NCBI GenBank assembly: GCA_965649765.1
Contig: OZ287754.1
Span: 11,966,001-12,030,000 of the forward strand
Reading direction: 5' to 3'
DNA length: 64,000 bases
DNA from: Bispira polyomma
Lineage: Eukaryota
Shown in pieces: positions 1 to 59,959 of the stretch (positions within the stretch are counted from its first letter, which is position 1; every line of letters begins with the position of its first letter). Below the pieces are notes generated by a model, which saw nothing but the letters and a program-made list of their open reading frames with translations, did no database searches and was not told the DNA's origin. Position numbers and translations under genes: made by a program.

Positions 1-419
1 CCGAAGCCTGAACATGCACAAAATACAAACTGCTGTATAAGCAAGCTATATGGTAAACTAGAAATAAAAGTTATAAGGGGTTAGGAAAATCACACAAACT
101 GAGCAGTACTTTGCACTTTAAATATCACATCAACTAGAACAAAGTGATGAATATAATACAACATTACACAATTACAATGAATATTTGCAAGCATGATATA
201 TTGCACACTTTCAGAAATAACGTTATATCAAGTTTTGAATGCATTGGGTCAAATCTGACAAATATTGTTACCACTACATATTGAAATTCAGTACCATAAT
301 TTACTTATACCAATTAAAACTGTTATTTGTATTTGGAGTATTACTCCAATTGCAATGAACTATTTTTGTCCAATCCAAACTTACTTATTAACTCAATAAT
401 GTTTGTTTAAGTTTTGCAG

Positions 420-9400: not shown

Positions 9401-12400
9401 ATATGCTAGGATTTATTGTTAGAAGAAAGCTATGGCCAGTTAAACAACAGAAGGGTTTGTGAGGTAAATTTAGGACATCTTGTTTGTATATTTGTCAAGT
9501 GAGGTATTATTATGTTGAAAGTAATATACATTGCCATTGGTTCAGGTGTTTGCCAGTGCCAAGAGGACTATGCTGGTCATGACTGTTCAGTGGACAAAAA
9601 CCACATTCCTACACTTCAGCCTTTCTACTTCAGTGGTCTATGTGACAAAATGTCCCGCCCCTGTCAGGATACTGCTGTCTATGCTGATCTTTTACTGGAC
9701 TCTGACAACCTGAAGTGCAGAGTACAACCCACAGATGTAATAACACAGTTTCAATTAACTTCTGTTTAATATAAGATTACATATAATTGTGCTGTACAAG
9801 TGAAAATTTAAGATGAAAGAACATTTCTGTAATTGAGAAGTTCACTTTAATTAGTTTACATTGTTTAGTTCAAATTTCAACACAATTTTAAAATTGTCAT
9901 TGGGATATAATTTTGACTTTCTATATTACTAAAATTAATTCTAGTGAAATTTAGTATATGTCAACAGTACAGATGTCATACATTTGCAGTTTGATATATT
10001 TTGTTTCGTATAACATTTTAATACATTTAAGACATAAAAGGCTGTTTAAAGCAGTACAAATTTATAATCAATATAAAAATATTTTCTAAAGCCACTCTGC
10101 TTCTGTTATTTTAAGTGCAGTTCAGTACAACACATAATTGAAATGTGAACATACAATTTATATTTAGGTGCTTAAAGTATCACTAATTGAGCTACCAGTG
10201 AGTGCTACTGTGCGGATCTTAATTTTTTCAAAATTATCCTATTACATATTGCAGGTCAGCCATTCCCCTGTATCAGAAGCCATCATCTACGATGGTGTGA
10301 TGGAGCATTTCCAGAAAGTATTCTGTCATATCCCTGAGCACACCATGCCATACATAGTGAGCATTGCAGTGACCAACAACGACCGAAATTACTCAGAGCC
10401 CCAGCCCTTACTGGTCTACCATAGCACCTGCTGGCACTGTAGTTTAGAAAGTGGCTGTGACAAGAAGGTATGAAAATTGCTACAAATAAAAATGTACATT
10501 TTCCTATTGTTTTATACTAAAATACCTCTTCTACGCTATCAACATTATATTATCTGAACAAAATCTTGATCTCCCAAGTAGTTTAGATAATAAGGGTTCT
10601 GCTGCATAGGTTATATAACTAGTTGATAAATCTTCACCTATTTTGTTACTTATTTCTATGCTTTAAGTAAATTTGAGACTGAAACAGTAATTTTAATGAC
10701 CATTTTCTTTAGCTTCTACTAGAATATGTTTAAAGCATACAGTTATAGTTTTATTTTTAAATGTTCTTCAAAGATTTCTGTTATTATTAAATATGATGGA
10801 TCATTGTCAAACTAATACTACTTATATTGCTTATTACACTTAATACATTATTGTAGACTGTGACATTGAGTGAATGGGTTAAATGTAGTTAATCCGCTAA
10901 TGCTGTTTTTGTGCATCACTTATTGTACTGATGCGACACATAATGAACATAATGATGTTATGACAAAAAAAAATGTGATTGAACATTGTATTGTATTTGA
11001 TAGAAATCATCCTGTGTCATCAACACTGACTGTGTCACAGCAGGAGAAAGCAATCCAAGTAATGTTGAAGAACACTGTGATCCTGAACTGGATGAATATG
11101 GGTGGTCTGCAGGTACAACCCTTAAAAAAGTAGCACAGTTCTATTAACAAGTTTAATTGTGTTTGATTCTTGAGTGTTCAGTCACATTTAAGTTCCTGGC
11201 AGAGTATTATAAAGGAATCTGATTTGGTTAGTGTAAAACGTAGCTGTGCATATGGCTGTTCATTTGAAAAAATTGTTTTTCATTCTAACAGGTTTTCTTA
11301 CTATCTAAGGGTAATCACAAACAATACACCAGTACAGTCAACTTGATGATATGTTAAACTGTATTTTACTGTATTTTATTGATGCGCAGCATCTTCTAAA
11401 GCACTACATCAGAATCAGTTAACCAATAGGGAAGTCCAAAATCATAGTCATGTTTGGTTTTTAATCAAACAATTAGCCTAATCTTATTTATTTTTATTTT
11501 CCAAAGTTCCAACCGAAACAACAAGTTCAGGAAAACTCAACCAAGGAGCAATAATTGGTATAGCCGTTGCAGCTGCAATTGTCATCATATCAGTGATTGT
11601 GATAATTGCAGTTCTTTGTAAACATAACAGGTGAGCAATGACAATTAACAAAGTATGTAATTTACACATATGTCACAATATAATCTCAGATTCAGCACAA
11701 TCTAAAATTATCATGGTAGAAACTCCAATTTTAAAATGACACTATATTCCTTTAAACTAATTTATTGTTATGAAAGAAAATCTCGCTTGCAGTTTAATTT
11801 AGAAATAAATAATGTGCATCTTGTATTTACAGTATTTTAAATTATAGTGTTCTCTATTTACATCAGCAAGAAGTCTGAAAGAGTCAGCTCTGAATTAGAC
11901 CTTGGCAAAAGTCTTCCCATTGTACCAAAGGTAGAGTTGATTTAAATTAATATATTTTCATTTAAAGCTAAGTATAAAAACTATTTTAGTATTCTGTAGT
12001 AAAAATTAAAGAAATCAAGTTAACATTCAAAATAAATAAGACTAGTAGTTCACAATACCGAACTTATGAATAACTATAAAGTTGCTTTGTGTAAAAAGTC
12101 TGAAAAATGACTTGTAAAGGTGTTAAAATAATATTAAAATTGCTTTATTCTTCAAAAACCAGGAATTTTGTAAAATTGTAAAACTGGATTGGGTTATCCT
12201 TATTCATGAAATTAAAAACCAGGAATTTTGTAAAATTGTAAAACTGGATTGTGTTATCCTTATTCATGAAATTTGCTTAAGAAATCTATCTTCACATTTC
12301 CATCATTGCAACAAAGATGCTGAGAAACCCTTCTGATACACAAAGTGCTGAAATAGTTTGAATGGTAAATTTTATGTGTGATTTAAGTCTTATACTGAAC

Positions 12401-17200: not shown

Positions 17201-18469
17201 GGCAAAATGCCCCTTGTAACAATTTCATTTAACATACTATCATTTGCTTTGGAATTGCTCCATCTGGACAACAAATCCGACACACCATAGTCAATCCATA
17301 TCACATGAATGGACTAATAGCAGTCTCTGTGTTGCTGTAGTAAAGTGGCAATTACTACTTACTGTAATTACTATGCATATTGACACCAGGTATGCTATTA
17401 ACATTCATAGAGTACTAACAAAATAGAAAGTACATGAGCATAAGAAAACATAATATGTATGGATAGATTATTGTTTCAAAGTACATACAAGAGTGCATAA
17501 TGCACTAAATGAGTGCCAAACATTTACAAGCAACAATGTCCTAATGCAACTATTAAACTTGTATACCTGTATATAGCAAATATATTGACTAATTTTTAAA
17601 ATAAACAACGCCCCCCTCCCTCCCTTGAAGGTAGATGTGTATAGTAGTGGCAGACCAGTTCACACCCGGGTGCCAATCGAGGTCCACAAAGATTGAAGAT
17701 TAGGAACCCTTAGCAATGATAGAAATGAATTTCTTCCAATCAACCTTATTATAATAGCAACTAAACATTATATTTTCTTATTTGCTATAAACAAAGAAAT
17801 GTTAAACTTTCATATCCTAAAAGGAAACTTGAACATATTTACTAAAATGAATATTATGTATATAAAGAAAAATGAAGGGAAGACACATTTAAAATTTGGA
17901 CTATTGCGGTATGTATTCATTTTTTTTTCTTTATTTTCTTTATGTACTCAAGCATGCATGTACAAACAATTATATATTTCAATCTCTGTACTTGTTATTA
18001 TGTTATACATTATATGCTGCGAAATTGGAGAATTAAAAAAAATGAAATAGTGAACATATATTTGGTGGAATATCTATTTCTGACGACCTTTGGTAAAGCA
18101 ATTATAATAATATCCTGATATCGCATGATAATTGTTTGTGCTTATATTATTATTAGTTATCTTAGTGTTACCCAGGTGTGAACTGGTCTGCTACCACAGG
18201 GCCTAACTACAATCTCTTGGCATACCCTATTTATATATACTTGGTCTTTTTATAAATAAAAACCACACTCAAATGACATGTAATATGTTTGGAACAAATA
18301 AGGGTGTTTAAAGTAGCATGTTTTCAATCAGTAAATTAGCCAAGTATTTATACAATAATACTTTGTTTTCTCTACTTTTCTCTCTTTCAACAATGGTTCA
18401 TAATTGTGTGTCTCACAAATTAAATTGTACAGTCTCTTTCCCATACATTTCCCACAAGTTTATAAAATT

Positions 18470-33900: not shown

Positions 33901-36767
33901 ATTTGTAAATATTTACAGCATTAAGCAGAATTCACTTTTTCAAGGAACAATTCACAATGATAGCTCTCAATCTTTTGAAGACACAGAATTCTGTGATTGT
34001 GATGCAAACGGTGTCAGAAGATGCGGCCCTCTGCCAAGAAGAAATATTAAAATCAAAGGTGTGCAAGACATATCACAATTAGCTATAAATAAAACTTCCT
34101 GCCAGCTTGTTTCCAATTGAAACCCTTGCAAAAAGAATAAGCTCGGACTAACATTTAAACCAAATACCATGAGATCCATTAGCAATGACACTGTAAAAAA
34201 GATGCGTAATTCAGATTTCTTTTTACTCAGACCTTGTACTAAATGTATTCTATTTGACTATAAATTTTCTGATAATGATTTCACACTGTATACAATGAAA
34301 CTTTAACATAGTAAACTTTCTATCTGTTTATGTTAAGACTTACACCTTAGTTTGTTCAATACTGTATTATATATAGTATCTTGCTGTACCTACCAATACT
34401 ACACAGCGGTCATTCCTTGGATACAATTAACAGACTTATATAAGAAGTGTCAGTCAATTAAGTTAGGAAACATTTTAAGAATGACAGACACATTTATTGT
34501 AACAATATGATGCATTCATGTTTTACAGGAAAGAATGTAGTTCCAGGAGGAAACTGTAAAGAATACAAACGGTGTATTGTTTACACTGACTATGTCCTAG
34601 ATGAGGATGAATTAGTTTTGGATTACGACCCGAATTTTGTTGCTACTGTAAGTTTATTTCAATTAAGTTTAATGATGTAAACTAAATATGTACATTAATG
34701 ATCAATTGTATGAATCAATCTATCGACAGTGATGCATATGCAACATTCATGACATGCCTATGTTAAGGAGCTAGAATGGAAAAATGGATGGTTGCAAGAC
34801 ACAGCTGAGGAATTCTGCAATGATTACTTCTCATCCAAAGAAATTTTGCAATCTTGTGCAGAACTCATCAACATTGATAGTGGAATATCAAACTGTCTTC
34901 TTGACATACACGTGAGTTGATGAAGACTAATTTTATTTGGTCATTGAACAAGAGCTATTACTAATGTAAACAGTCAATTCACTATTATGCATATTAAAAT
35001 TTTCAAAGCTCGCTTTTAATAATTAGTCACACCATAAATAAATATAATTACAGACTATTACATGCATGAATGAGCAAGGAGAACATTTATACTGACATTT
35101 TTTATAAGTGGTAATTGATGGTTCCTTTAGTTTAACTCTGCATCTGGATCACAATGACCAATTGGTAAAATAGTGGTAAATTGGCAGTGATGTTTTCATC
35201 CACTGCAATGTGGCTCATATTCTTAACTTCCAAGATTGAAAACTTAATGTTATAATACAATGAAATGTAATTGAAACTATTTAACATATATGCAGCAATG
35301 TATGGTATGCCGCTCATTTGTAAATATAACCCACTTCCTCTTTGAGTCTTAACCAGTGGGGAGAAATGTGTAGCTTCAGCCTGCTTGATGATTGACGGTA
35401 AACAATTGGCTTTGCAGTGCACTGTGTATTTTAGAGCAGCCTTTTTATTTTATTAGAAAGTGTGATATAACATACCAAATGGACATGGGATGCATAAACT
35501 TGTTAATTGAATAATATGATATTACTTATATTAACTGGTAGAAGCCCCTGTTAGTCGTTACTATATAATAGAAAATATTTTCATATGTATAGAGTTTTAC
35601 ACAGCAATTTATTTATATTACAGACTTGAATAATATGATTTTTATTACATTTCAGATTACAGGAACTACTGACTACACAAAAACTCAACTGGATATGTTA
35701 TTGTCACAATGCATAAATAAGATAGAGAAATATGACATTGTCATTGCAGATGGTGACAAAAGTTATACCAACCCTTACAAGGACTTGCTAGAATCTGTCT
35801 GCTACTCTGATTGCAATGGAAATGGCCACTGTGAAAATGGTATAAGGTTAAAGTATCAATCTGGTTCTTGTTGTGCAACCTAAAGTTGTTTATACTTAAA
35901 AATATTGATTACATCTTTGTTGGAACTTGTTTTGGATATATCAAACTTATTTGCAATAACTTAATGTCCAGAGTTTTCAACCTGGTAGAAGCTTAAGCAC
36001 ATTTCACATTTACTTCAATTTCTGAATGCTAATTGTGTATTCAAATATCTAAGTGATACGTCTTTGTCAGTGCACCTGTTTGGCAATGTGTAAAAAGACA
36101 CTCATATTAGTCATGATTGATGGTTATTGTGTAAAGAAAACTATGGGCAGCTAAACAACTCAAGGGTTTGTAACGCAAATTTAGAAAGAAGAAGGGTAAA
36201 ATTTTCATTTGGCACCTGTATACTTGTCAAGAGAGGTACTATTAGGTTGATATTTATATACATTACCATTGGTTTAGGTGTTTGCCAGTGCCAGGATGAC
36301 TATGCTGGTCATGACTGCTCTGTGGACAAAAAACACATTCCTACACTACTGCCTTTCTACTCCAGTGGTTTGTGTGATAAAGGGTGCCGTCCCTGTCAAG
36401 ATACTGCTGTCTATGCAGACCTCTTACTGGACTCTGACAACCTTAAGTGCAGGGTGCAACCCTCAGATGTAATAACACAGTTTGTTTATGTTTAATATAA
36501 TATTGTATATATAATTTTACTGTACAAGTTGAAATTTAAGGTGAAAGAAAATGTCATAAATTTAGCCTTGTGAGAATTTCATTAGAATTAATTTTGACTG
36601 TTTAGTTCAAATATCAACACAAGTTTGAAATTGTCACTGGGATGTAATTTTTACTATCCCAACTCAATTTACTAAAATTAATTCCGAATGAAAATTATAT
36701 AGTATGTGGTAACATTACAATGTGTTTTTAGAGGTTCAGTAAAACATCAGGATTCATTTAACATCTG

Positions 36768-37850: not shown

Positions 37851-40049
37851 CTGAAAGAGCTGCAAATATTTTGATCATACAATTTATATTGAGGTGCTTG
37901 AAGTATGACTAATTAAGCTTCCAGTGAGTGCTACTGCGTGGATCTCTTAATTCCCTAACAATTATCCTATCACATATTGCAGGTCAGCTATTCCTCTGTA
38001 TTAGAAGCTGTCATCTACAATGGTGTGATGGAGCATTTCCAGAAAGTATTCTGTCATATCCCTGAGCACACCATGCCATACATAGTGAGCATTGCATTGA
38101 CCAACAATGACCAAGATTACTCAGAGCCTCAGCCTTTACTGGTCTACCATAGCACCTGCTGGCACTGTAGTCTGGAAAGTGGCTGTGACAAGAAGGTAGG
38201 AAAAATGTTACAAAGAAAAAACGTACATTTTCCTACTCTTTTATGCTAAAATACATTTTCTACGCTATCAACATTTTATTTTCTGAACAAAATCTTGATA
38301 TCTCAACCAGTTTAGATAATAGAGGTACTACTGCATAGGTTATATAGCTAGTTGAAAGGTCTTCAGCTATTTTGCTACTTGTTTCTATGCTTTAAGTAAA
38401 TTTGAGTTTGAAATAGTAATTGTAACATCTTGTTTAGCTTCTAATGGAATGTGTTTGAAGCATACATTTTCAGTTTTATTTTGAATTTTCTTCAATAATT
38501 TGTGTATTTAATAAACATGATAGATCATTGCTAATTTAATACTACTTATATTGCTTATTACACTTGGTACATTATTGTAAACTGTGACATTGAGTAAATG
38601 GGTGAAATGTTGTTAATCAGCTAATGCTGTTTTTGTGCATCACTTATTTTACTAATACAACACCTTATCTTTAACATAATGATTTTACGACAGTTTAAGA
38701 CAATTGTGATTGAACATTGCATTGTATTTGATAGAAATCATCCTGTGTCATCAACACTGACTGTGTCGCAGCAGGAGAAAGCAATCCAAGTAATGTTGAA
38801 GAACACTGTGACCCTGAACTGGATGAATATGGGTGGTCTGCAGGTACAACCCTTGAAACTTTAGCACAGTTCTATTAACAAGTTATATTGTGTGTTTGAT
38901 TCTTGAGTGTTCAGTCACATTTAAGTTTCTAGTAGAGCATTATTAAGGAATCTGATTTGGTTAGTGTAAAACGTAAAACGCGGCTGTGCATATGGCTGTT
39001 CATTTAAAAAAAATCTTTTATTTTCATTCTACCAGGTTTTCTTACTATCTAAGGGTATTCACAAAAACTACCCTACTACAATCAACTTGATGGTAGGGTA
39101 AATTGTATTTTACTGTATTATACTGTTTTAACACACCCTATTGTTGTGCGGTGTCTTCTAAAGTGTAATATCAGAATCAGTTAATAGGGAAGTCCAAAAA
39201 CATAGTCATGTATGGTTTTTAATCGCACCATTAACCTAATCCTCTTTATTTTTATTTTCCAAAGTTCCAACTGAAACAACAAGTTCAGGAAAACTCAACC
39301 AAGAAGCAATAATTAGTATAGCCATTGCAGCTGCAATTGTCATTATCGCAGTGATTGTGATAATTGCAGTTGTTTGTAAACATAACAGGTGAGTAGTGAC
39401 AATTAACATAGTATGTAATTTATGTATATGTCACAATAGAATCTCAGGTACAAAATGTCTGAGCCTTATTTGAAATGACAGAATAATGAGTTGATCATTG
39501 CTGAAACTCTAATTTTGAAATGACACTATATTCCATTCAAGTAATGTATTGTTATGAAAGAAATATAAGATACACATCTAACATGAGTACCTTTAACATG
39601 TGGCTTGCAGTATAATTTATAAATAAATACTGTGCATCTCATATTTACAATACTTTAAATTATGGTATTCTATATTTACATCAGTAAGAAGGCTGAAAGA
39701 GTCACCTCTGAATTAGACCTTGGAAAAAGTCTGCACAACAGGACCCTTTAGGGGCCTGATACTTCAGTCCACTTACAAACCTTTTAACTTTCATCACAAC
39801 CTTAATTTCGGTTATACCAACAATATATGTAGCTATTTACTGGGCTACTAGCCAATCACAGCCCACACACTTGTTGTTTAGGCTTCACTTTCCAAATCAC
39901 CATTTTGAATCTACATTCAAGCTATAGAATTTAAAGCAACAACAAGTGAAAAATATTTTATGAAATAAATGAATTGTATTTATGTGATTTTATTATTTTA
40001 ACTTGGTTTTTATGACACATTGTGTGCTACATATTGTGAATCAATCGAC

Positions 40050-41435
40050 ATGGGTCGTACTAAGAAAACGCCCACACACAGCTCAGTTAAAAAATCGACC
40101 AAGAAACCACTTACAGCAAGAAAGACAAAGGAAAGGCAAGTAGTTGATTCTCTCGTCTTGGACCTCGACGGTCAATTATCACAGGTAGCGGGCCCCTCTA
40201 GTACTGACAATTCTTTTCAACAGATAAATAGCGATGCCTCGCCAATGATGGCGACTCGGGGGCCCCTACTTAGGCCGGGTTCCGACACAACCAGCAGCCA
40301 GAATTCTGACCAAATGCTTGCCATTCTCATGAGGCTTGAAGCTTCTAACGCCGACTTAGCTGGCCGTTTGCAGAAAGTAGAGCAACAGGCATCGACTAAC
40401 GCATCCATGTTACCTACCCCATCCCTCCTCAGGACGGGTCACACACCGGCCATCGGGCAGATGGGAACTACAGCTTCACTTAACGTGCAGGGTACATCTG
40501 CATACAACCAACCTGCTACAGGCCACCACGGTCAGATCGCTGCCGGCTCACTACCACAGACGGGTTATCCTCCTCAACAACCAGCACAGTGCAACGCTGC
40601 GTTCGCGCTTCCCACTCAGTCAGGTAATATTGCATCAGCTTATATGCAGAACGCTAGACCAGACATCCCCGTAGCAACACACACGGGCTATGCGGGTCAC
40701 GATTACCAACGAGACGGGATCGTACCGAATCTAGATGCTTTAAGAACCTTACCTCACGTCCAGGCGGAAGTTACCAGACAGCTTGCTCAGTATTCAGCAC
40801 TTGCACAGCGAGATATAACACAAGGTAAGGCATCTCTTAAGCATAAATCGGGACGGTTCAATAACACAGACGTCACTTCCATGGATCCCAGGCTAAGGTG
40901 GCCTAACGAAGGGTGGGTAGGGGGTTCTTCAAAGAAGAAGCCAACGTTCGATGAACTCACACTGCCGCAGTGGGCTGCAGGGCAGCTCGCTAACGCGCTA
41001 TTAGTACCTAACCCTGCTGAAATGAAGGACATGGTAAGACAAATAGTATCAGCACTCAGAGATGCTTCATCTCTTCCGTGGCACGTTGTCAGGACAGCCT
41101 GGGCTCTCAGTATGCACGAGGTTGAGGAGGGCCGGCTGTCCTGGCAGAACGACACCCAATAGTCACTGAATAGGCTCAATGCTTCACAGGTAGCCATGGT
41201 CAACAGTGCAAACGTAGGTATTAGCAACAGCAATTATAGCAACGATTCTAAACTTATTTGTAAGTTATATAACAATGGTAAATGTACCCACAAGTCAGAT
41301 CACGACAAATACAAACACATCTGTTGGCATTGTAGCCGAACCCTGGGGAAGGACTCCAACCACCCCGAGTTCAAGTGTTACAGATCCAACAGTAAACAGC
41401 TGGACACTCAGGTAAACCAAGGAAAGCAAAGCTAG
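40050..41435 (+). pseudogene. gag: Gag-like ORF1 of element 1 with C-terminal Cys/His zinc fingers; one internal TAG
   Basis: Starts MGRTKKTP. Contains WPNEGW..PTFDELTLPQWAAGQ and CKLYNNGKC...H...HICWHC...H...C. TAG at 41160-41162 sits where element 2 has Trp. Confidence 0.8.
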
Positions 41436-44169
41436 GTAATTCTTCAACAACCAGGAGAACGAACTATAGTTAAAGATAATTGCAAAGTAGAAATAAGAGA
41501 TGAGCATGATAGTAACATTAAAATTGTAAAAGGTGAGCTTAAATCTAATGGTGTTGATAATATACTGTGTTATGGTAATGAGAACAATGAACATATTAAT
41601 GGAAATGAGAACATAATGCAAAACAATGTGAACAAAATGTACTCTAGTAATTTCACAAATGTTTCAAATGAGAGCATGATGACGGAGTACAACTGTATAT
41701 CAGAGCATTATGACTTATTTTTGTATGACAGTGTGCAATCCAGATGCAGTGGAAGTAAAATGCAGTACTGCAACAGCGAGTTAGCTGGTTATGTTAATTC
41801 CCAATACTATGATGGTAATTCTAAAGAAAGAGAAAGTAAAAATCAGATAGAAGTAACAGTCACTGTCACCAATTGGCAACATTTTTGTAAAAAATGGTCC
41901 GTTTGGGCTCCAATAATATTCTTAAACTGTAGCTGCAATGAAATTGAAGGGTTTTACTACATATACCATCATAGTGGGGACAATGAAATGAAATACATGC
42001 CTGTGTTTAATATACCTCAAGGAGATCTGCAGGTCATACACAGATATGTCACAGCCATATATTATGATCTCACAGATAGATGCAAAAAATTACTAAGTAA
42101 GGTTAATCAGTGTAATGCTGAGGATATTGAACAGGCAGCCAATGTTTTCGACAATTTCAGTAAAGATGAAAAGTGTTACAAACAGTATGGCTGCGACTAT
42201 TCTGAATATATAATGAATATTATTGATATTATGTGTGATGATAACTGGAAAGTAGATGACAATGCAAGCAGTGCAGACAAATTCAATGTAAATACTGCAG
42301 CTGGACACGAGACTCCAAGGAGTGTGCCCTGCGATGAAATATACACATGTCCGATTCGCAATTTCTTCTTCAAAACTGATGGGGTCAATGCTGGCACCAG
42401 TAAGAACATTAAGAAAAATTGTCATATCGCCCAATCAGGAAAATCAGTGGGATTTATTCCATTATCTTCCACAAAATTTCAGTCTATTGGTCCTGATCAG
42501 GAGCCAGTAAAAGTTAATTCAGTCGGTAAAATGGAAAAAATTGCTGCTATAGTTAGAGGCACGAATCTCCCTAATTATAGGCAGGCTAGAATTCCTTTAA
42601 TTTCGGGATTACACCACACAGCGTGGGAGGAAATGCTTACTGACTATTCGGATCAGCTATTAATACAATATATAAAATTCGGGTTTCCTATATCTCTCAC
42701 AGAACCAGGGAAACTAAATAATTCAAAAACTGCCAACCATTACTCTGCTTTGCAATTTACGAAAGAAGTCGGGCAATATCTTGAGAAAGAAAAGTCAATG
42801 GGGGCGATGTTAGGCCCAGTTAAGCAAGTGAACTCACCACACTATCACTGCTCACCCCTTTTAACCAGACCCAAAGACACAGACAAACGTAGGGTCATTT
42901 TAAATCTTTCTTATCCACTGGGGCAGTCACTAAACGAGAATGTAGACAAAGCACTGTTCGATGGGGTCAAATTCATATTAAAATTTCCTACTATTGACGA
43001 CATCACAGAGGCGATTCGGAATACTCATGATCCAGTGCTGTTCAAGATCGACGTGGCCCGAGCGTTCCATAACTTGAGAGTTGATCCAGCTGACGCACTG
43101 AAACTAGGCATACAATTCGCTGAAGGGCAGTACATTGACTCTGCGGTCGCGTTCGGGTGGATACACGGAAGCGCGGCTTTTCAGCGTTGTTCCGATGCCA
43201 TAGCAGCCTATATGTCGGAACGCGGGTTTAGAGTATTTTGCTACATCAATGACTACATATGTGTATGTACTAGAATTAAGGCTGACAAGGGTTTCCGTAT
43301 TTTGAAAGATTTATTGCTTAGGCTAGGTTTCCCAATTAACGATGATAAGCTTACACCTCCCACAACTCGCCTTACATGCCCAGGCATAGACTTTGATATT
43401 ACTGCCGGCACTATTAGCATACAGGAAGAAAAACTTATAAGCATAATTAAAATGGTAAATGACACCTCTCAAAAATTGCACATTTCACGTACTCAGTTTC
43501 AATCTTTATTAGGAAAATTATTATATGTTCACAAGTGCGTGAAACCTGCCAGAACTTTCATAAATAGATTACTTCAAGGTTTCAGAAGTGATCACAATGC
43601 TAAAAAATTCAAAAATTTTTCTGAAATGCGCCATGACATCGACTGGTTTCAAAAATTCTTACCTCAATATAACGGGATATCATACATTAACCATAGGGAC
43701 ATTTCCCATATGGACGAGTTACATCTGGACGCCTGCCTATCAGGTTTAGGAGGTGTCTGGAACAAAGAAGTGTACACCATATTATAATGTTTATCAAAAA
43801 GAGCTTACCATAGTGCATATAGAGATGCTGAACATTGTCCTGGCTTTAAAAATTTGGGGTGAAAAATGGGCTCACAGTAGACTAATAATTCACTGTGACA
43901 ACATGGCCGTCGTACTGGTTGTTGAAAGTCAGAAGACGAAAGACGAATTTCTAGCATTATGCTTAAGGAACATTTGGCTACTTATAGCCACATATGACAT
44001 TAATATTAGCATTAAGTACATTCCAGGCAAGGAAAACATAATAGCAGATGCCCTTTCTAGAATTTATTGCAAAACTCCTCCCAGCAGGGACATGTTATAT
44101 AATTTATACAACAATTATGTTTGGAATCCAGTACTCATACAACATTTTGACCTAGATTTTTTAATATAA
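41436..44169 (+). pseudogene. pol: Pol of element 1: long N-terminal extension, reverse transcriptase, RNase H
   Basis: RT motifs SPLLTRPK..RRVILNLS, KIDVARAF, AFGW..GSAAFQR, YINDY (YIDD degenerate). RNase H motifs LDAC, EMLN, HCDN, NIIADALSR. Frameshift near 43780. Confidence 0.9.
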
Positions 44170-44175
44170 TTACAG

Positions 44176-45152
44176 GTGCTACTGCCATTACTCAGAAACT
44201 CATCACTTCAGCATGTGGAAGGATTGACACAGCACTTAGACCAAAGACTTCTTCTGCTTACGAAAATCAATTTAAAACTTTCCTGGCTTTTAATGAATTT
44301 GCAGGCATTTCAAATACTTCGGTTCATTCAGTACTGGCTTTTTTGGAATATTTGACACAAAATAACATTTCCCCTGCTGCGGTGTCAAACTACCTTTCTG
44401 CTCTAAAATTCATGGCTAGAAAGTTCAATTGGGATTTAGCTCCATTCAATCACAATTCTGTTGCATTATTCGTCAGAAGTATTACAATTAATTCACTATT
44501 CCGTCCCAGACACAAGGGATTGTTTGATATCGCACAGCTAGCACAGATTTCCATAGCATGTTCTATTCTAGATGACCCAATATTATACAGATCAATATTT
44601 ATGGTGGCCTATTTTGCTTTTTTGAGATTATCCAATATTGCCCCTCACTCAAGGGCCACATTTGATAGATCTAGGCATTTTCTCAGACAGGACTTAATTT
44701 TTGGACATCCTGGGGCTCACATCATCCTAAAATGGGCAAAAAATTTGCAAAATAGGACAGATACACATATAATACAAATTCCAAAACTACAAAATAAGAC
44801 TATTTGTCCAGTATTGGCATTGCAAACCTTACTAGCTTCCAGGCCCCTTCCTCCTGCTGCACCACTTTTTGCAGTAGCTGGTACACCACATCACACCATA
44901 GTACAAACACATGTAAGGACAGCTCTGGAAAAAGTCTTGACACACATTGGAATACAATATTCTTCACATGGATTCCATACTTTCAGACGTTCTGGAGCTT
45001 CATTTGCATTTAATCATAATGTATCCCTACAGAATATAATGGCCCACGGGCTTTGGAGATCATCTTCAGTTTGGGCTTACCTCCCAAAAACCTCCCAGGC
45101 AGCATCAGTCGTGCCTCATACCTTTGCCTCTTCCATTCCTTCTTCTCTCTAG
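44176..45152 (+). CDS. Tyrosine recombinase of element 1 (no ATG before the conserved N-terminal region; probably a spliced exon)
   Basis: Catalytic set intact: FLRLSN (R), KWAKN (K), HTFRR (HxxR), HGLW, VWAY (Y). Frame open from 44151. TTACAG acceptor ends at 44175. Confidence 0.88.
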
Positions 45153-47022
45153 TTGGGCTTGGGGCTTAAAATTTTCTGAATTTTAACCATTTTTACACTT
45201 GTTTCTCTGTACATATACCATTAACATGTATATATAAAATAAAGCTCAAACTGAACCGTTTTATTTACTTACACAAAACATCACACTTGACTTAAAATCC
45301 ATTACTTAACATCTTGAACCCAACTTACACCTTATAACTTAAGTGGACTGATCCCATTGGACCAAAGGTGGGGTTTATTTAAATTAATATATTTTCATTT
45401 GAAGCAAAGTTTAACACAATTTTAGTATTCTGTAGTCAAATAGAAAAATTAAATTAACATTTACAATAAATACCATCACTGGTTCACAATAACTAACTTA
45501 ATGATAACCATCAATTTAAGTTGGTTTGTGTGGAAAGTCTAAAAAATTACTTGTAAAGGCATTAAAAATAATATCAAAATTGCTTCATTTGGTAAATACC
45601 AAGAATTTTGTAACATTGTAAAACGGCATTGTGTTATCTTTATTCTTGAAATTTGTTTGAGAAACTATCTTCACATTTCTATCATTGCAACAAAGATGCT
45701 GAGGAAAACTTCTGCTACACAAAGTACTTAAGTAACTGGCCACAACTTCCTATGCTTTGCCTTTGTTTCTGCATTATACCTTATATTATTGTTTGGCAAA
45801 CATATTGTATATATAAAGTTCTCAGTAGGAGACAGTAGTAATTTATAAAAAAAATACTAAATATACTGATGATATGAAGTTTTCAAGTATGTATTCCGAC
45901 TATTAATAAATAGTAATTTATACAATATTTAGTCCCTGGAAGATAATCAGAATGGGATTCCTCCAGCAATGGCCCAGGTTGACTTCAAAACGATGAACCT
46001 GTACCCAGATGTGACGCCAAATAACAGACTAGCACCTCTCATACCCAAAGTCACAATGGTGAGGCCAGCAGATGACACTTGGGATCACTACAGCCCTGCA
46101 GCACTCCAGGTGGATACTCTACCCGATGATGCCAAAGTGTAGGCACATGAAGGAATGCTATGGGAATATGAACACCTTATTAACATTTTAAGCATAGATT
46201 TGGATAACTGAGCTATTCAAATATTTATTGCTGTGAATGTATTTAAGTGAAGAGAATTAATTATCAAAACAATTTCCATGGTATATAGAACTAAATGATG
46301 ATTCCAATAGTTTATCCTTTAATGGCTCTTAACTGAATAGCTATTTAAACCAAACAGCTGTAATTTTAAAGCAAATAATGGGGGCTGTATCTAAATATCT
46401 TTTGTTAAAAATAATTTGTTCCAATCTGATAATTTATAGAACATGTGAAGAGGCTAAAAATTATGCCGATTTGACGAGGAAACTGTGTAATTTTGAAAGC
46501 TAGTCTTTTCATTACTACTCTGTTCTCCCCTTTTCTTCACTTTGTTTTTTATAATACTTTTTCTTGGTGTTAAGGTTTGTGTATGTTTGCATAATAATGT
46601 TATTTTATAGTAATGAATTTAATATGTTGTATTATATGGATGTTTGTTGTCTGACATATTTGAGGCATGTGAGAAATTTCTACTTTTACCCTAACTGGTA
46701 ATATGGTTGCTTGAGAACTAACCACTGAATGTAGAAAAACAGTTAATGAAAGAGTAAATATTCAATGCTCAATCATATACATAATATGTTTATACAAACT
46801 GACTGGTATCTAGGGTTTACTGAGGGTACTATTATAATATTTTGCAGTATTAACTACTCAATTAAAACACATTAATAACCAAAGTCAGAGGCTTGACGAA
46901 GAGCATTTATAAATAGTCCCCAAAGTCTTTTTGGGCAGATAACGTCCATATCAATAATTACTTTAATAGGTTAAAACTGTCTGACATTTAACTTATTACA
47001 AGAGCTTGCTGATCCACAAAGA

Positions 47023-47278
47023 AGGGGTCGTGGTGGTCTAGTGGTTAGAAAGCATTGCGCTTCACAATCACTGGTCTCTCACCTCTGGGTGGCGTGAGTT
47101 CGAATCCCGTCGATGCCTATGTGGGAAAGGTGGTAGTTCCTTACTGTGGGTCGCTGGTTTCTCTGCAGAACCTTGACTGTATGCAGTGTTTCCTCCAGCG
47201 TTTTCAACTACCCATACCAATATAACCTACTAAAAAAGGTACTACAGTGGACGTTAAATATCCAAATTAAAAAAATCC
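47023..47278 (+). mobile_element. tRNA-derived SINE (family 1)
   Basis: A box TGGTCTAGTGG, B box GTTCGAATC. 12-bp TSD GATCCACAAAGA at 47011-47022 and 47279-47290. Confidence 0.92.
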
Positions 47279-50950: not shown

Positions 50951-52730
50951 AATTTTATTCTTTAACATGCTGTGATTTGCTTTGGAATTGGTCTATCTGG
51001 ACAACACATCTACCACACAATTGCCAGTTCCCATTACATTAATAGGCTTGACATCTAGATTGTATTTAATACTGCAGATACATACATCAACTTTAAAAAT
51101 GACAGTTACTAATAGCAGTGCGTGTGCTACTAATTACTTCAATTACTATGCATATAGACTCCAGGTATGCTATCAATGTTTATGGAATACTAACACAATA
51201 CAAAGTACATGAGCACTTAAGAATATTCATGGATATATTATTATTTCAACATACCTACAAGAATGCATAATGCACATAGTGAGTGCCAAACATTTACAAG
51301 CAACAATGTCCTAATACGATTAATAAACTTGTACACTCATACATAGCAAGTAATTTTCTTTTAACAAACAACCCCTCGACCCCCCACCTCCTGCCACATG
51401 GTAAGGGTAATTGTTTGATTTCACAACTATCACACCCAAAATAAACTTAACTTTCTCTGTCAACTATTACCTGAGATTACTCTTGTTCATGAAAGACAAC
51501 AAATCAGTTCAGGGGAATGCCATACCCCGACAGCCATTAAATGTAGAGATCAATAGTAGTGGAAGACCAGTTCATGCCCAGGTTCCCACCAAGATTGAAG
51601 ATTAGGTACCCTTAACAATGATAGAAATACATTCCTAATAATCAACCTTATTATAATAGCAACTAAACATTATCTTTTCTCATGTGCTATAAACGCAGAA
51701 ACGTAAACTTCCATACCCTAAAACAAAAAAACTTTAACGTATGTACCAAAATTAATATTGTGTATATAAAAGAAAACGGAAGGAACGAAATTGGTCAAAT
51801 ATGAAGATGCTCTTTATGTAAATATATAGACAAGATGATAATAGCGACCTATATATATAATAGTCGCAAATTAAGTGCAGCTCTGACTTGGGACAGACTA
51901 AGATGGATTTTTTGTACAGTGACCTAAGTGTATGTATTAGTCTTCAGTGGGCAAAAAATGCGATAAAAAGTATCAGAGTTCGCCATCTGAAGACACGGGT
52001 GAAATGTCTCATAAAAAAACGGGCCGATAGTGAACCACCAGTAAAATCAAAGGGGTACCGAAATCAAAGCATTGTGGGGGACAGAAAAATCGGTCTACAA
52101 CAACTCAGGGCTCTCGTTTTTCATTAAAATTAAATATTAAACAAATAAAGGGTACTTGCTTCTATTTGCTTGCTTCTATTACAATGATGCAGTAACCTGC
52201 ATCAGAACAATAATTATGACATTGCAGTATTGTTATGCCATGATGGTGCTTTCTATAATAATTTTGAAGTGACCATAATGGGAAGCCGATGAGAAGACAA
52301 CCTTACATGTGGCTGAGCCACAGGCAAGTATAAAGCAGTGTCCGCGTTCGCGTCACTGAATTGCTATTAGTGTGTCATATATAATCCACTGTTCATAGCA
52401 GTGGTGAGGGTGAACCAGACTAGCAAAAATTCAATTCTCAATCTTATAGGCGAGTTTAACAACATAATATATTTGAACTAGTTTTGCTCCGGGCTCATTT
52501 CGTTGTAGTCGGCCCCATGCGCCTTGGACACCTACCGCCTGGCAGGGGGAGATCCAGCCTCTCAGAGGCCATATTCCACCCTAGCTCCCTAAACATGATG
52601 CTCAGGGGTGGGTTAAAGCAGACTGTATCAACCCCCCACTCGGCCCAGTGGGCGGACTACAAATAGTTTGAACCATGAGTAAGTTGAAAAGTCCCTTAAT
52701 TGGGTGTGGTAAGGGGAGGTGGTGGGCAAG

Positions 52731-52905
52731 TTTTCCTGTGTGTGTGCTTCAATGTCGAAAAGCTTAATGGCGAATTTAAGGGGGGAAAATGCATTGTCGA
52801 GTTAAACAAAGAACTGGCTGAATGTATGGCTGGATAGACAGTGAAATAAGTCAGCTCAGTCGCCAGGGGTTAAGGTGGTTTATAAGATTTAAAGCACTGG
52901 GGCAA
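52731..52905 (-). repeat. Repeat A2 of element 2 (copy of 57898-58074)
   Basis: ~175-bp direct repeat with about a dozen differences. The layout A1-ORFs-(B1 lost)-A2-B resembles PAT/Ngaro split direct repeats. Confidence 0.85.
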
Positions 52906-55900
52906 TTGGTTCATATGGAGGTGTGGAGCCAACAAATAATGGGTAAGTATCTGAGAGTGGCCTGGAGGTCAAAAGCTGCTGTAAAGCCTTAACTGGGCAG
53001 AGGTTTTTGTTTACTAATAAAGGGATTTGTATTATGTGTACTTCCACCCTGCTTTATAAGTTCTTTGCCCATTTAAGTATCACATTGGCGCCTGGTGGGC
53101 CAAAGATGACGGCTTTTCTTAACAAGTGACGTGTGTTATCAAATTGGGCTCTAGAGTTGGGAGCTATGTTTGAAATTCTAAGAAAGCCAAAGAATGAAAG
53201 GAGAAAGATTGCTCTATATAGTATGGGATCAGTTAATGTGTTGCAAGCTCTGGAGATAAATGCTAGGTGGTGTATTTCAAATGTTCCTTTTGGTCGAGGT
53301 TTGAAGAGTGAATTGTGGGTCAAGCTTCTTAAAAACATGGCCACAGTGTAATTCTCAAAAATATGTATATTCCAGGAATATTTCCTTGCCATAAACTTAA
53401 TGGCTGCTAAGTAGTTGTTAATGGCCCCTGTGGAGGTGCCATACTGTGCTGAGTATTCTAGGAAAGCTATGACCACGTGTGTGGTTACAATCTAAATGCC
53501 AGCAAACACATTGAAGGCAAGAAAAGTCTTAAACTGATTATTGCAAGCTGCAAGTGGTTTTGGTCTTAAAGCAGTGTTCAGTCTACTCCAGGCTGACTCC
53601 ATTAATGCTTGTGTGGCCTGTATTGACCCTGAAATTACATGATAATGTTAAAGTTAAAAAAGTGAAGTGGGATATGGTGCCACACAAACTCTTGTTTTAA
53701 CAGTATATTTCTTTCATTATCCGAATAATGGTCAGAGTATATTCTGGACAGTGCATCCGCTATACAATTTTTTTCACCCTTAATGTGGTCAATCTGTAAG
53801 TTAATGTCATATTGTGCTGAAATCAGCCATATATTTCTAAGACACAGGGCTAGGAATTCATCCTTAGTTCTGTTGGAGCCAATGACTAGTACCACAGCCA
53901 TGTTGTCACAGTATATCCTAATTGTACTATGCGACCACTGTTTGCCCCAGAGTTTAAGTGCTATTAAAATATTGAGCATCTCGATGTGTATAATGGAAAT
54001 TTGGCGATCATATACATTGTAGAGGGGGGAGGCGTAAACCTGGCTGTTGAAGATACCCCTACACCTGTTAAGCATGCGTCAATGTAAACAATGTTAGTTT
54101 CAAGGTCAAACTTCTCAATGTATGTAAATCCATTGTACTGCTTAAGAAATATGACAAACCATGCAATCTCATCCTTCATGGCATCTGTGATTTTGAATCC
54201 TGTCCCCTGTGAGTTACCTTCGAAAGGCCATGAGAAGTCTGTTTATGAAAGCCCTAGCAGGTTTAACGCAATTGTGGATGTTCAAAAGTTTGTCTAATAA
54301 AGACTGGAATTTGGCACGACATATCCATTGCTTGTTAACAATTTCCACACACAACTTGTGAGTATCCTCAATCTTGTCTTGAGTTATACTGATTGTGCCC
54401 TCAGCAATGTCTGTGTCTATGCCCAAGCAAGTTACTCTGGTATCCGGAGTTGAGAGTTTGTCTCCATTGATAGGGAGACCTAAAAAATCAACTAATTGAT
54501 ATAAATCTTGAAATGCTTTCTCAGCTGTATCACTACGTGATATACCGACATAATTGTCAATATAACAGAATACCTTTTGGTTTAATTTTCCCATGGCATA
54601 AGCTATCATGTCGGAGCATCTCTGGAAAGTTGCCGAGCCGTGGACCCAGCGACCGCTGGATCCACGTACTTTTCACCTTCAAAACATATGCCTAGTTTAA
54701 GTGCATCAACGGGGTCAACCCGCAAATTTCGAAACGCCCGGGAGACGTCCAACCTAAATATTCTGGCGTCCTTGGTTTATTTTTTTGACTATGTCATCAA
54801 TGGTAGGAAACTTAAGTACAAACTGGATGTTGTCAAATAATTGCTTGTTGACATTATCGTTAACCGATTTTCCCTGTGGGTATGACAAGTTGAGTATAAC
54901 CCGGCATTTGTTTAGGTCCTTTGAGTGAGGAGGGGCGAACGGTGATATAAATTGCTATGTACCTCCTTAACTGGGCCCAACATGGCACCATTGGCTTTTT
55001 TTTCTCAGGGTATTGACTAATTGCGCCTTTGAATTGTAAGGCTGAATGATGATTGGTGGCCTCCCCTGTATTTAGTGAAGTAGGGTCATCCAAAGACAGG
55101 GGGAAACCAAATTTCAAGTACTGGAGTAATTTGTCTGGGTGATCCATTAAAATTTTTTCCCATTGATCAATGTTCAAACTAGATTTAAGTGGAATGCTTG
55201 CCCCGCTATAATTTGGGCACCCCGAGTCCCTAATAATGTTTGCTATACTGACTATTTGATCAATAGATGAACTTAAAACAGGAGCCCTGTCTTGGCCTGC
55301 GAAAGTGAAATTGGTGTCAGATAACACCATGAATCCCTTATTTTTGTCAGGTAAGTTAATATCAGTGACATTCTTGTTTCTGAAATGGTAAGCCGTGTTA
55401 GTTTCTGAGCAGTCGGTAGGCGGCGTCAAGACATTATTCTGTGTGCTATCCACACTTGATACATTTGTGTTAATTACTGACTGATCAATCATTTCTAAAT
55501 GACTGTCATCATTGCCACCCAACATTTGGTCAATTAAATCTGTCATATAATCAGTATAACTACACTCATATTTGTTAAGTGACAGAATGTTTTTTTGCTG
55601 ATCTGTCAATACTTCCTTTGGTGACATGTCACCTACAGTAACTGTCTCAACAATAGAGCTAACAGATTCCAGGTCACCATAAATGTGTGCAATATACACA
55701 TAAGTTTGGATAGTTTGTATTATCGAAATGGGGCCCTCAGGTAAAAAGTCACATTTTAAATAGTCATATCTCTGACTAGTGGCATTTGATTTTGGAATGA
55801 AGAAACCTGTTATTTCCCCATTAATAGATCTGATGTAAATCAAAGGCAACATTTCTTGAGAATCTGGAAAACAATATGACCAATTTGTCACCTGAATTGT

Positions 55901-57064
55901 CACATCACACATGTTAGTGATATAACCCAAATCTCAGCTAACATGTGTTCTTGCCTTACTTGGTAGGGCATTCATGATTACATTATTATTATACAATTTA
56001 AATTTTCTATTTTCACACTTGGTGCTGGATTTTTTGTCCAGCTGGTTATTGGCAGACTTATGGTCCACCCACAACTTATAAACACAATTAGTTTATGATT
56101 TCTCTGTCACATTTAAGTCATTTATAGTGGCTGTACTGCCATTAAGTTTTGTTCTCTTTATATTACTGTCCTTTCCATTACTAGCAAGATCTAAAGCTAA
56201 TACATTATTAATGTCATTATTACTCTCATCACTTGAAACATTCAAAACATTACAATGCCTTTCCAATGTTCATTCAACTAGTTGTGGGTTACTGGCCTAG
56301 TTGCTGGTTGTTTTACTTTCCTGTTGTTTGGAAGAGTTAGCCCTATAGCACTTGAATTTTGGGTGGAGTGATTCCTTGTGCAGAACAGTGGAATAGTGCC
56401 AACATATGTGTTGGTATTGGCCGTGATCCAACTTGTTGGTGCATTTGCCAGCGTTGAACAGTTTGCAGATATTTCTGGCCAATTGTGGTTTGTATGAGCC
56501 GTGGGAGTTGTGCGCGGGTTGGCCATAGCCATCTGTGCAGCGTTCATCTGGCTGAGAGCCCACTGTGTTATGTTGCCCCATTGTAGCCTGCCTTCTTCGA
56601 CTTCATGCATGTTATGCGACCATGATGTTCTTACTACGTTCCACGAGAAAGAAGCGGCGTCCCTTAATGACAAAATAACCTGTTGGACAATTTTCCGTGA
56701 TGTTTCCGAATCAGTAACCTGCATGGCACTGGACAGCTGGCCGGCTGCCCATTGCAGAAGTGATAATTCATCAAATGTGGGACGCTTTCGAGCTGTTCCA
56801 CCCACCCAGCCTTCGTTGGGCCATCTGATTTTCGGATCAGCAGTTGATATGTCGGTAGTATTGAAACACGCTGATTTTTGTCTGATTGGCTTACCTTGTG
56901 AAAGGGTATGTTGCGCCTGGGTCTCGTACTCAGCCAGCCTTTAGTTGATGAGCACCTGGACTTCAGGGATGGATTTTAAAATGTCTATCTTGGGGACAAT
57001 GGCATCCTTGGAGTAGTCCACATGTTGGAACAAACGCGCCTGTGACTGTAGTATGAGTGTTGGA

Positions 57065-57321
57065 TTTGAATTTGAATTTGGGTATTTAACATCCACTCTA
57101 GTACCTTTTAGTAGGTTATATTGGGACGGGTAGTTGGAAACGCTGGAGGAAACACTGCATACAGTCGGTCAAGGTTCTGCAGAGAAACCAGCGGCCCACA
57201 GTAAGGAACTACCACCTTTCCCACATAGGCATCGACGGGATTCGAACTCACGCCGCCCAGAGGTGAGAGACCAGTGATTGTGAAGCGCAGTGCTTGCTAA
57301 CCACTAGGCCACCGCGGCCCC
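57065..57321 (-). mobile_element. tRNA-derived SINE (family 1), full length, nested in gag of element 2
   Basis: Starts GGGGCCGCGGTGGCCTAGTGG. 14-bp TSD GTATGAGTG(T/C)TGGA at 57051-57064 and 57322-57335. Highly similar to the 2671-2914 copy. Confidence 0.93.
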
Positions 57322-57897
57322 GTATGAGTGCTGGAGCAGCAGCTAGAGGTATGTATGGGGCCGTTGTAGCTGGCCTGTTTTTTGTAGAGATCTTGGCTGG
57401 GTGACACAACGGGAGTCGACTGGGACATTTCGCGTGCTTCCATCCTGTCCAGCCTTCGGTTAATCACCTCGTTGGACTCTAATTTCTCAAACATTTCCAT
57501 GATGGCTGGCATTACATTGGTTTCGGTTTGTATCGAGGACGAAGCTGCTCCGTGAGCCATAAGAGGGTGTGTGTGACTAGCCGTAGCCGTAGAGAAACTC
57601 AATGAGTAGCATTCTCTGGGTATAATGGCAAATGAAAATTATTTAGTACACTGTCGTTTACCTGTCCTTGAGTGATTTTCTTCTTTGACGATTTTACACA
57701 AACACTGCTTTTCTTGGATGTCCTTGTTTTAACACAGGCCTCATCAGAAGGCGTCTTCTTAGGTTTCCCCATTCTCTAAATAATAGTCTAGATAAAATAC
57801 TAAAACGTTGCTCCACTAAAAGCCAATATTAAAATCACTAACAAGAGTAAATAGTCCATAAAATAACAGGAAACAACTTGGATTTCCTATTTCCATG

Positions 57898-58074
57898 TTT
57901 TCCTGTGTGTGTGCTTCAATGTCGAAAAGCTTAATGACAAATTTGAGGGAGGAAAATGCATTGTAGAGTTAAACAAAGAACTGACTGAATGTATGGCTGG
58001 ATAGACAGAGCGAAATAAGTCAGCTCAGTCGCCAGGAGTTAACGTGGTTGATAAGATTTGAAGCACTGGGGCAA
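57898..58074 (-). repeat. Repeat A1 of element 2
   Basis: Matches 52731-52905 and lies upstream of the gag ATG. Confidence 0.85.
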
Positions 58075-59959
58075 GTGAAGCACCAGACCCCTCTGTGGTC
58101 GTGACATCTAAACTTCATAGATATAAGTTTGAAGTCTATCTTTTAGAGTCGTGGTTATATGGATTTTTGTTACCAGATGCAAATATAAACATACAATCCA
58201 TCTATTAGGAGGCAGACTTTATATTAAACTGCTAGTGTCCCATTTTTCCAGTCTAATCACAAGTTTAATCACAGATCTTGGCTCATTTTCATTGACTTAA
58301 AAAAAGTTTAGCAGATCCACGTGGAAAAATAAAATGGATTTCGAGAACCATCAACTGTGGGTACCTAGTAAGGTAAACCAAAAGCAAAATTAAAATTTGA
58401 AATATCTATGCATAAACAACAGAATCACCTTCAAAAAAATTCTACAATGTATTTTTCACATAATTTTGCTTTAAAACTTGATAAAAACAATTTTTTACAG
58501 CTCTCGAAATGACCTAATAATTTATTTTCTAATTTAAAAATTTTCAGCTGTTATAGCTTGCACAACATCCGAAATTAGTGAACCACTAGTTAGCGGTCAA
58601 ATCGATTACATTTTTGACTTTTGACTTGGGATAACCGCCAAAAAACAAATATAGGCTAATATATAGTATGTACGCCAAGCATTATAATGTACACATATAT
58701 GTTTAATTGCTATTTTCGGGGAGTTCTGTGAAGTTCTGTTAATTGCTTCCTCAACTTACAGAGACAAGTTCAATTTCTATTTTCGAGATGTTCTGTTATT
58801 TGCTTCATTCCAGGTTATATATTGGTAGACATAAGATAATATTTTACTAAAAGAACCATATACATAAAATTTTAAGGGGACCCGATCTATAAGATTGGTA
58901 CTTAATGATCGGGAACCCGATACATTACACTTTTTCTTTTCCCTTTTCTTTTTATATACAGATTTAAAGAATTTGTTTTTATCTCCCACTGATGATGGAC
59001 CCTTGCAACATAAAACAACTTTTGTCAGTTTTGTGATTAGATATATTATGTTAATGAGAACGGTAACCTGAATAGCATTCTCTGCTCTTCGGTGTTAATA
59101 ATGATGTCATTTGTCTGGTCATATGCTATAAAATTGCTATCTCGTAAATTTTGCGTCTTCGTGAAAATAAATTAGCAAGAGGGTATCAATCATGTCACTG
59201 CGCATCCTCAGAAGATCACGTGTCGACACTCTGTACTCTACTTTCATTCACAAAAATATCCACCAATGAAACAGCTGATAAGATTAATCAATTTATTCTC
59301 ATTAAGACGGAACATTGACTAAAAGCCCTGAACAAGTGAATGATGTTACAGTCTAAAACTGGCCCAGAGACTTATCTGTTTGTGTGTTAAATGGCTGAAA
59401 ATGGCTGGTGCTCCGTTAATTGTAACACAAATTTACAAACAGTGCCACTTTGAAACAGACCCAACATGTATGCCAAATATGAAAGCTGAGGTCCTTGTAA
59501 GTTCTGAGATTACTTTGTCCCAATTGTGTAATCATCTGCAACCACCTCATTCCACACCCTATAATCCCCCCTTACATAATAACATATTTGGTGGGGATTC
59601 CCTACTTAATTTTAAAATGTATAATTGTGGTAGTATTGTTATATATTTGAGGGTATTTCTTTAGTTATTCTTGTTTTTCTACATTAGAAACTCTAGTACT
59701 GTTATTTGACTGATACGGTACATATTCATTGTTTTCTTTATGTACTAAAGCATGCATGTGCAAACATTTATATACTTCTATCTCTGTACTTGTTATTTTG
59801 TAGTACATTATATGCTGTGAAACTGGAGAATTAAAAACTAAAGATTGAAACAGTGAATATCTTTTTCTGACAACGTTTTGGTAAAGCAATTATAATGATA
59901 TCCTAACTGATATCAAATGATAATTGTTTGTGCTTACATTATTGTTAAAGTTATATTTG

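Follow-up and report, generated by a model that had tools for sequence, protein, structure and literature searches.

The joined ends of a Ngaro-type tyrosine recombinase (YR) retrotransposon, element 1, are predicted to form an imperfect hairpin whose outer stem stops at the insertion boundary, and the same architecture is predicted at the junctions of 30 families in its 1.04-Gb, AT-rich host genome. We regard it as close to certain that selection maintains this hairpin at the crossover. As to its function, we give a probability of roughly 55% to the best-supported model, in which it is a folded plus-strand attachment site for the element's own YR, used in a single strand exchange that would be resolved by replication.

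Element 1 and its ends

The features of element 1 and its empty target are given below in positions of the window, by which we mean the whole 64-kb stretch of DNA analysed.

39732..45350, + strand: element 1, Ngaro-type YR retrotransposon, short form A1-ORFs-B
39732..39963, + strand: repeat A1, 232 nt, present again as a direct repeat after B1 in full copies
39732..39738, + strand: 7-nt top strand of the predicted folded site (the heptamer), TGCACAA here and TGCACAG in the other 29 of 30 loci
39739..39746, + strand: arm 2, 5' side of the inner stem
39751..39758, + strand: arm 3, 3' side of the inner stem
39759..39764, + strand: 6-nt bottom strand facing the heptamer
39765..39775, + strand: arm 4 of the outer stem, complementary to the last 11 nt of element 1
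40020..41162, + strand: ORF1, gag-like by position only, without a Pfam match
41616..43787, + strand: reverse transcriptase (RT) ORF (RVT_1, E 1.4e-8)
43753..44169, + strand: RNase H-like part (RVT_3), in a frame that differs from RT in the window copy
44343..45152, + strand: tyrosine recombinase, with R95, K133, H212, R215, H235 and Y246 all retained
45159..45350, + strand: repeat B, 192 nt
45340..45350, + strand: arm 1, whose last G is the element end and the putative YR cut site
11870..11960, + strand: empty target of element 1, break at 11913^11914, in the paralogous copy of a segmental duplication

By layout and domain content, as read from the sequence, the element 1 family is Ngaro-type. 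RT/RNase H and YR share one strand with YR downstream, RNase H leads straight into the YR frame without a methyltransferase between them, and no Pfam match to a methyltransferase domain was found in the window ORFs or in four ORFs of the sister family L205. Split direct repeats in the order A1-ORFs-B1A2-B2 occur in the element 1 family and in 28 further clusters. The published descriptions of Ngaro elements that we examined agree in that a single strand encodes ORF1, RT/RNase H and YR, in the split direct repeats with this order, in the absence of a methyltransferase and in the occurrence of solo AB remnants (PMC8547959, PMC9210276, PMC4157794). The predicted fold of the element 1 YR (pLDDT 84) was nearest to Cre, followed by XerH/XerA, with IntI absent among the listed fold matches, and a PDB sequence search returned XerH alone (E 0.015). 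Viral contigs yielded no relatives, Rfam gave zero matches in 39600-45500, and our trees (a quick tree and FastTree) cover the families of this genome only.

In full copies of the family, A1 (232 nt) and the ORFs are followed by B1 (192 nt) and A2, then by a ~760-nt spacer and B2; the window copy lacks the A2-spacer-B2 tail. Both the split direct repeats and the short form of the window copy had been missed in the first-pass annotation, which was made from the window alone. Full copies carry the end-to-end junction naturally at B1/A2, where GGACTG is followed directly by TGCACAG, so that no reconstruction of it is needed. The ends themselves were placed with a genome search for the left end, in which the best 40 of 206 candidates, nearly all 99% identical, were scored and 30 loci fetched. 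T precedes GCAC at the left end in 30 of 30 of these loci, while the base 3' of GGACTG varies among host-flanked right ends of the family, and the element therefore spans 39732-45350, each end one base away from its earlier placement. As first reported, the 12 nt at 45340-45351 are perfectly reverse-complementary to those at 39764-39775. We found no second copy of either string in the 64-kb window; of this 12-bp complementarity, which is present in the window copy, only 11 bp is conserved, since with each end shifted by one base the twelfth pair involves a host base. An AAC core of the integron attC type had also been read into the heptamer, but GCACAAC occurs in the window copy alone (1 of 30 loci, against GCACAGC in 29), making it a private mutation, and heptamers vary across families.

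The empty site of element 1 comes from a tandem segmental duplication (window ~400-17900 versus 28300-51800, ~80-92% identity), within which lie cysteine-rich, exon-like ORFs at 33794-34120 and 36127-36495. Compared with the paralogous break, the filled site shows zero net gain or loss, the first base after the break being T in the empty and A in the filled site, and the original observation that the target was neither duplicated nor shortened is thus upheld.

Short copies are as common here as full ones, a difference from Ngaro elements as described: among 140 YR loci (L091-L150 and L177-L256), 34 are A-ORFs-B copies and 42 carry the internal junction. Short copies may have originated by B1xB2 recombination or by direct integration. 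Extra tandem A-spacer-B units lie behind or before elements at L007/L008, L092 and L113, and solo A-spacer-B insertions were seen at L006, L023 and L025.

A predicted hairpin at the junctions of thirty families

The 140 YR loci comprise 60 of 102 PF00589 matches and 80 of 286 matches from two further searches, the latter chosen for open frames and diversity. They formed 60 clusters at 85% DNA identity, in 28 of which the repeats define the junction; with elements 1 and 2 these make up the 30 families, whose YRs are 25-88% identical (median 38%). The other 32 clusters have no testable junction, one having lost A2 and the rest being short, truncated or with unrelated repeats. Chance overlaps of A and B (0-10 nt) were settled by setting the junction behind CTG or ATG; no such rule was needed in 10 clusters, whose repeats abut exactly. 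A first look at this genome gave ~12,000 YR candidates, which are not copy numbers but point to a very large and diverse expansion of the clade.

In all 30 families the outer stem stops at the insertion boundary, directly after …CTG, and is followed by a mostly unpaired centre and then the inner stem. The best register of the centre is 5 versus 4 nt, extending to 7 versus 6, and the inner stem varies in length among families. The last base of the bottom strand is T in 28 of 30 families and faces the first base after the cut, forming T.T in 26. The first-pass annotation had proposed that the joined ends make a hairpin and that related junctions be searched for covariation, and both ideas proved sound: the natural internal junction of the full copy L003 is predicted to fold at -15.8 kcal/mol (z -5.3, 0 of 200 shuffles), and the outer stem is present and covarying in the 30 families.

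In the alignment of the 30 families (alignment A2), pairing reaches 88% in the outer helix, where 6 of 8 pairs have changed on both sides, and 63% in the inner helix. For the 16-pair structure as a whole, two-sided changes fill 91 cells versus 35 in shuffles and 76% of cells are paired versus 60% (0 of 500 shuffles in both cases), with two pair-type measures weaker (29 and 41 of 500 shuffles); these covariation figures lean toward the structure because it was derived from the same sequences. Slid controls pair at 27-45% versus 76% for the true register. RNAalifold finds the outer helix in this alignment unaided but not the inner helix. L213, which is misaligned, was kept for covariation and RNAalifold and omitted from the G.T count.

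Comparisons between families bear on whether the complementarity of the arms is due to chance or is mere inherited sequence, as might be argued from the relatedness of the families and from the invariant central CTG/CAG, which is uninformative on pairing. Across 15 disjoint sister-family pairs, which are independent, 9 of 19 arm-1 changes are compensated versus 1-2 of 19 in slid controls. Arm 1 also pairs better with the arm 4 found in the same family than with arm 4 sequences from elsewhere among the families (3.7 versus 2.3 of 5 at positions 4-8; 0 of 20000 permutations). With the far lower pairing of the slid controls in addition, such an origin is scarcely credible. The proposal that arm 3 repeats an ACTG motif in all families found no support, the best mean match being 1.6 of 4 and the motif visible by eye in the E1-like clade only.

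The fold favors the plus strand. G.T outnumbers A.C on this strand by 23:10 (p 0.018, the families not being independent of one another), and 24 of 30 families fold better as the plus than as the minus strand. Fold z is below -2 in 20 of 30 families and no better than -2 in the other 10; for the element 1 junction it is -5.3 on the plus and -4.5 on the minus strand.

This G.T bias and the pairing suit an RNA hairpin equally, a point against the folded-DNA model. The hairpin could instead work in the mRNA or nascent cDNA, where pausing, priming or a template jump would define the ends and YR would join these to A-x-T targets with no need for the fold. Judging from its position, the junction should be transcribed in full copies, and a hairpin has been put forward as the primer of DIRS-1 reverse transcription (PMC7192593). 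However, the boundary lies at the inner edge of the stem and not at the base where a polymerase would be expected to stall; the targets, in the bases they prefer (see below), mimic the end of arm 1 in exact register, which ties arm 1 to YR binding; and the invariant CTG/CAG with a 7-nt strand resembles recombinase geometry. We consider an RNA-level role quite unlikely as the explanation of the fold.

Insertion ends and targets

Element ends were detected without using the heptamer, which was nevertheless present at 118 of 122 detected A starts; of the four starts without it, one has a local change and one a deletion, one is an internal junction at an offset, and one rests on a hit that was not reproduced. 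Seven of the 118 were dropped as sibling-family junctions or another element's end, leaving 111 host-flanked starts, and 103 right ends were found, one of them an internal junction, leaving 102. The heptamer was on 0 of these 102 host-flanked right ends. Scored in this way over many insertions, the earlier claim that the heptamer can go to either end did not survive. That claim had been built on element 2, thought to carry the heptamer on the right, and the relevant features there are as follows.

52187..58110, - strand: element 2, older decayed related family, left end at 58110
58104..58110, - strand: element 2 heptamer TAGATGT, at the left end
52727..52908, - strand: internal A2 remnant of element 2, 92% identical to 57894-58077

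The left end of element 2 at 58110, heptamer included, is set by empty copies of a host repeat. Its family, for which 30 of 40 matches were fetched, has the junction …GGGCAAACTG followed directly by TAGATAT…, with the same spacing to the complementary arm as in element 1, so that TAGATGT differs from the family heptamer TAGATAT. The GCAAAAC near 52481, previously taken as the right end, is part of the spacer between the internal repeats, where copy L038 reads GCTAAAC. Element 2 has lost B1 and the internal junction by deletion and stops at ~52187, the last ~330 nt, including the true right end, being deleted together with ~63 nt of the host repeat. With the heptamer on the left and the supposed right end in a spacer, the two insertions do not carry it on opposite ends. 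Two other features concern this region: a 250-nt repeat has three copies in the window (2668-2915, 47015-47278 and 57063-57330; 91-96% identical), one of them within element 2, and a small element with 28-nt inverted arms (17644-18197) has a paralog in 51783-59725 that is split by ~8 kb, made up of a dispersed host repeat that in turn contains element 2.

Tn916 and Tn1549 provide a precedent for YR integration without core homology or duplication, and their variable coupling sequence goes to either end. The elements described here share the former property, whereas their heptamer is fixed and always on the left. A double exchange of the Tn916 kind, with a heteroduplex 7-nt core segregating to either end, would account for a target neither duplicated nor lost, and one distant metagenome locus with both repeats, L167, has 5 of 7 heptamer bases after the right repeat; the 102 right ends and the left-hand heptamer of element 2 nevertheless make it highly improbable in this genome.

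The proposal that integration proceeds without core homology or target duplication was borne out. Over 102 right ends, target positions +1 to +7 agree with the heptamer no more often than chance would have it, and the 53 two-ended loci show no excess of target-site duplications over chance. A candidate empty allele was found for 13 of 64 flank pairs, and in 11 of these 13 the insertion produced zero net change in the best-matching empty allele; of the remaining two, one is a single base off close to a run of T and the other is uninformative. Where the target was a tandem repeat, further offsets were seen, arising from unit-length variation.

Targets show base preferences. Of 111 targets, 71 have A at -4 (p 7e-10) and 81 have T at -2 (p 5e-19); in arm 1 these same bases are almost invariant. 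A weaker preference for A at +1 and at +9 was seen in 52 of 102 targets each (p 8e-4 uncorrected), and a mirror A at +9 is compatible with a 7-bp spacer. Two further target rules were rejected: a perfect mirrored dyad appears only weakly (A at +9), T at +11 not being enriched, and a 1-nt T core shared with the target is contradicted by the varying base after right ends. In three comparisons (window 45351, L200 and L195) this base is A in the filled site but not in the closest empty allele, though at L195 a second paralog does have A at that position. The A at +1 of filled sites may reflect templating by the conserved hairpin T or plain divergence. At L232, near position ~3270 in element orientation, an element is inserted directly after a match to an E1-like right end, which suggests that element ends are good targets.

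The use of junctions is one-sided. The 140 loci include 80 with a host-flanked A upstream, 42 with a downstream junction and one with an upstream junction (L113, RT-less). A simple full ring with two equal junctions predicts permuted insertions and is contradicted by this count of 1 in 140. The same count weighs against a reading in which YR acts on the circle junction as a duplex (arm 1, then 7 bp, then arm 2), one exchange is followed by replication or by biased repair, and selection on the hairpin comes from a different step, for instance closing of the cDNA; the internal junction and both circle junctions should then be equally active. A duplex site has points in its favor. Complementarity of arm 1 and arm 2 is maximal at a 7-bp spacer (2.7 of 8 versus 1.5-2.1 at 5, 6, 8 and 9), VGJphi uses a duplex site, one exchange and replication for its integration according to PMC3442271, and the textbook DIRS model, as outlined in PMC7192593, uses a duplex circle. 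Yet as a duplex palindrome arm1:arm2 is weak at this same 2.7 of 8, and the strong, family-specific pairing is that of arm1:arm4. We judge a duplex substrate unlikely.

A proposed folded attachment site and its counterparts

In the folded-site model, a plus-sense single strand would arise from gapped or displaced cDNA, or be extruded from a supercoiled circle, and would fold through arm1:arm4 and arm2:arm3. YR monomers would sit on the two stems, to either side of the mismatched 7/6-nt centre, cut the folded site after arm 1 and cut the target at a look-alike half-site. One strand exchange would then join host to heptamer and arm 1 to host, and replication would resolve the resulting junction, as happens with integron attC and the attP(+) of CTXphi. 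The internal junction, as a duplex, would be inert.

YRs hold their binding arm 5' of the scissile phosphate, and with this usual polarity the cut strand would be the plus strand. The in-register likeness of the target to arm 1 makes it likely that YR cuts behind this half-site in both partners. An inert duplex junction would explain the persistence of full copies and tandem units and the use of one junction, and if only the single-stranded junction is active, the asymmetry of left and right junctions would follow. A heptamer that is always on the left, and not on either end as under double exchange, fits one exchange followed by replication, although biased repair could also produce it.

Several observations sit less easily with a folded DNA site. 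Micro-homology beside the cut is described as a requirement of attC and CTXphi (PMC3442271, PMC5027507), whereas here a mismatch lies opposite the first base after the cut and homology is absent from the target. The inner helix, at 63% paired, is variable in length. DIRS-1 cDNA is reported as single-stranded, with a circle junction that could not be amplified (PMC7192593), which speaks for a single-stranded substrate; the cDNA observed is antisense (PMC7192593), whereas the folded-site model needs the plus strand.

The closest counterpart is attP(+) of CTXphi, used by XerC/XerD of Vibrio cholerae, in which, as described in PMC3442271, a single strand likewise folds back on itself through two arm pairs, overlap bases stay unpaired and one exchange is followed by replication, a step that is our proposal for the elements studied here. 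Arms pair crosswise in both, strongly for arm1:arm4 and moderately for arm2:arm3 (63%) in the present families. The differences are that this is a eukaryotic retroelement with its own Cre-like YR, and that its targets are degenerate rather than dif and without homology beside the cut. With integron attC, in the features outlined in PMC5027507, the junction shares an imperfect hairpin conserved more in structure than in sequence, an unpaired central spacer of 5-6 nt, strand asymmetry and, in some families here, a bulged base in the inner arm. It differs in having no conserved AAC/GTT core, in a boundary at the stem edge and not inside a box, and in a recombinase whose predicted fold is nearest to Cre, not IntI. 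DIRS1-like elements have the same order, an internal template for the end junction and a target that is not duplicated, but they are described with inverted repeats, an ICR and a 3-bp core identical to the target (PMC3266345), in contrast to the direct repeats only and the lack of target core identity found here.

The element class is already known; the folded junction, the target rule and the end asymmetry, as deduced from sequence comparison, appear to be new. They are absent from the published Ngaro descriptions we examined and, more widely, from the portions consulted of a literature that includes PMC7192593, PMC8547959, PMC9210276, PMC6681497, PMC13465315, PMC3783388, PMC4157794, PMC12440569 and PMC3266345; Goodwin and Poulter 2004 and Poulter and Butler 2015 could contain an earlier mention. 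We give slightly less than even odds to the reading that split-direct-repeat YR retrotransposons are the first eukaryotic elements integrating via a folded single-stranded DNA site, in which a Cre-like YR would join a mismatched hairpin to a near-random duplex by one exchange and without homology, the fold perhaps being general to Ngaro elements in eukaryotes at large. According to PMC5027507, IntI and XerCD are the only known cases of single-strand YR recombination, which would then extend beyond them, and the system would point to a scarless, homology-free integrase.

Integration of YR retrotransposons has for decades been a model without substrates, and the duplex circle was not recovered for DIRS-1 in the experiments described in PMC7192593. 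There are now a defined candidate substrate of ~60 nt, a predicted cut site and strand, a target rule and compensatory variants from 30 families, with which the question can be settled using oligonucleotides and one protein. The boundary rule, by which an element starts directly after …CTG without a target-site duplication, improves the annotation of such elements at once.

Similar strong hairpins, without an independent boundary, were found in 3 of 26 metagenome loci. Two-stem hairpins lie 3' of YR in four metagenome relatives with 29-43% YR identity (L153, L159, L160 and L167); L167 alone among the four has repeats bearing on the boundary, which is ambiguous there by 6 nt, and an 11-bp stem is found at its B end.
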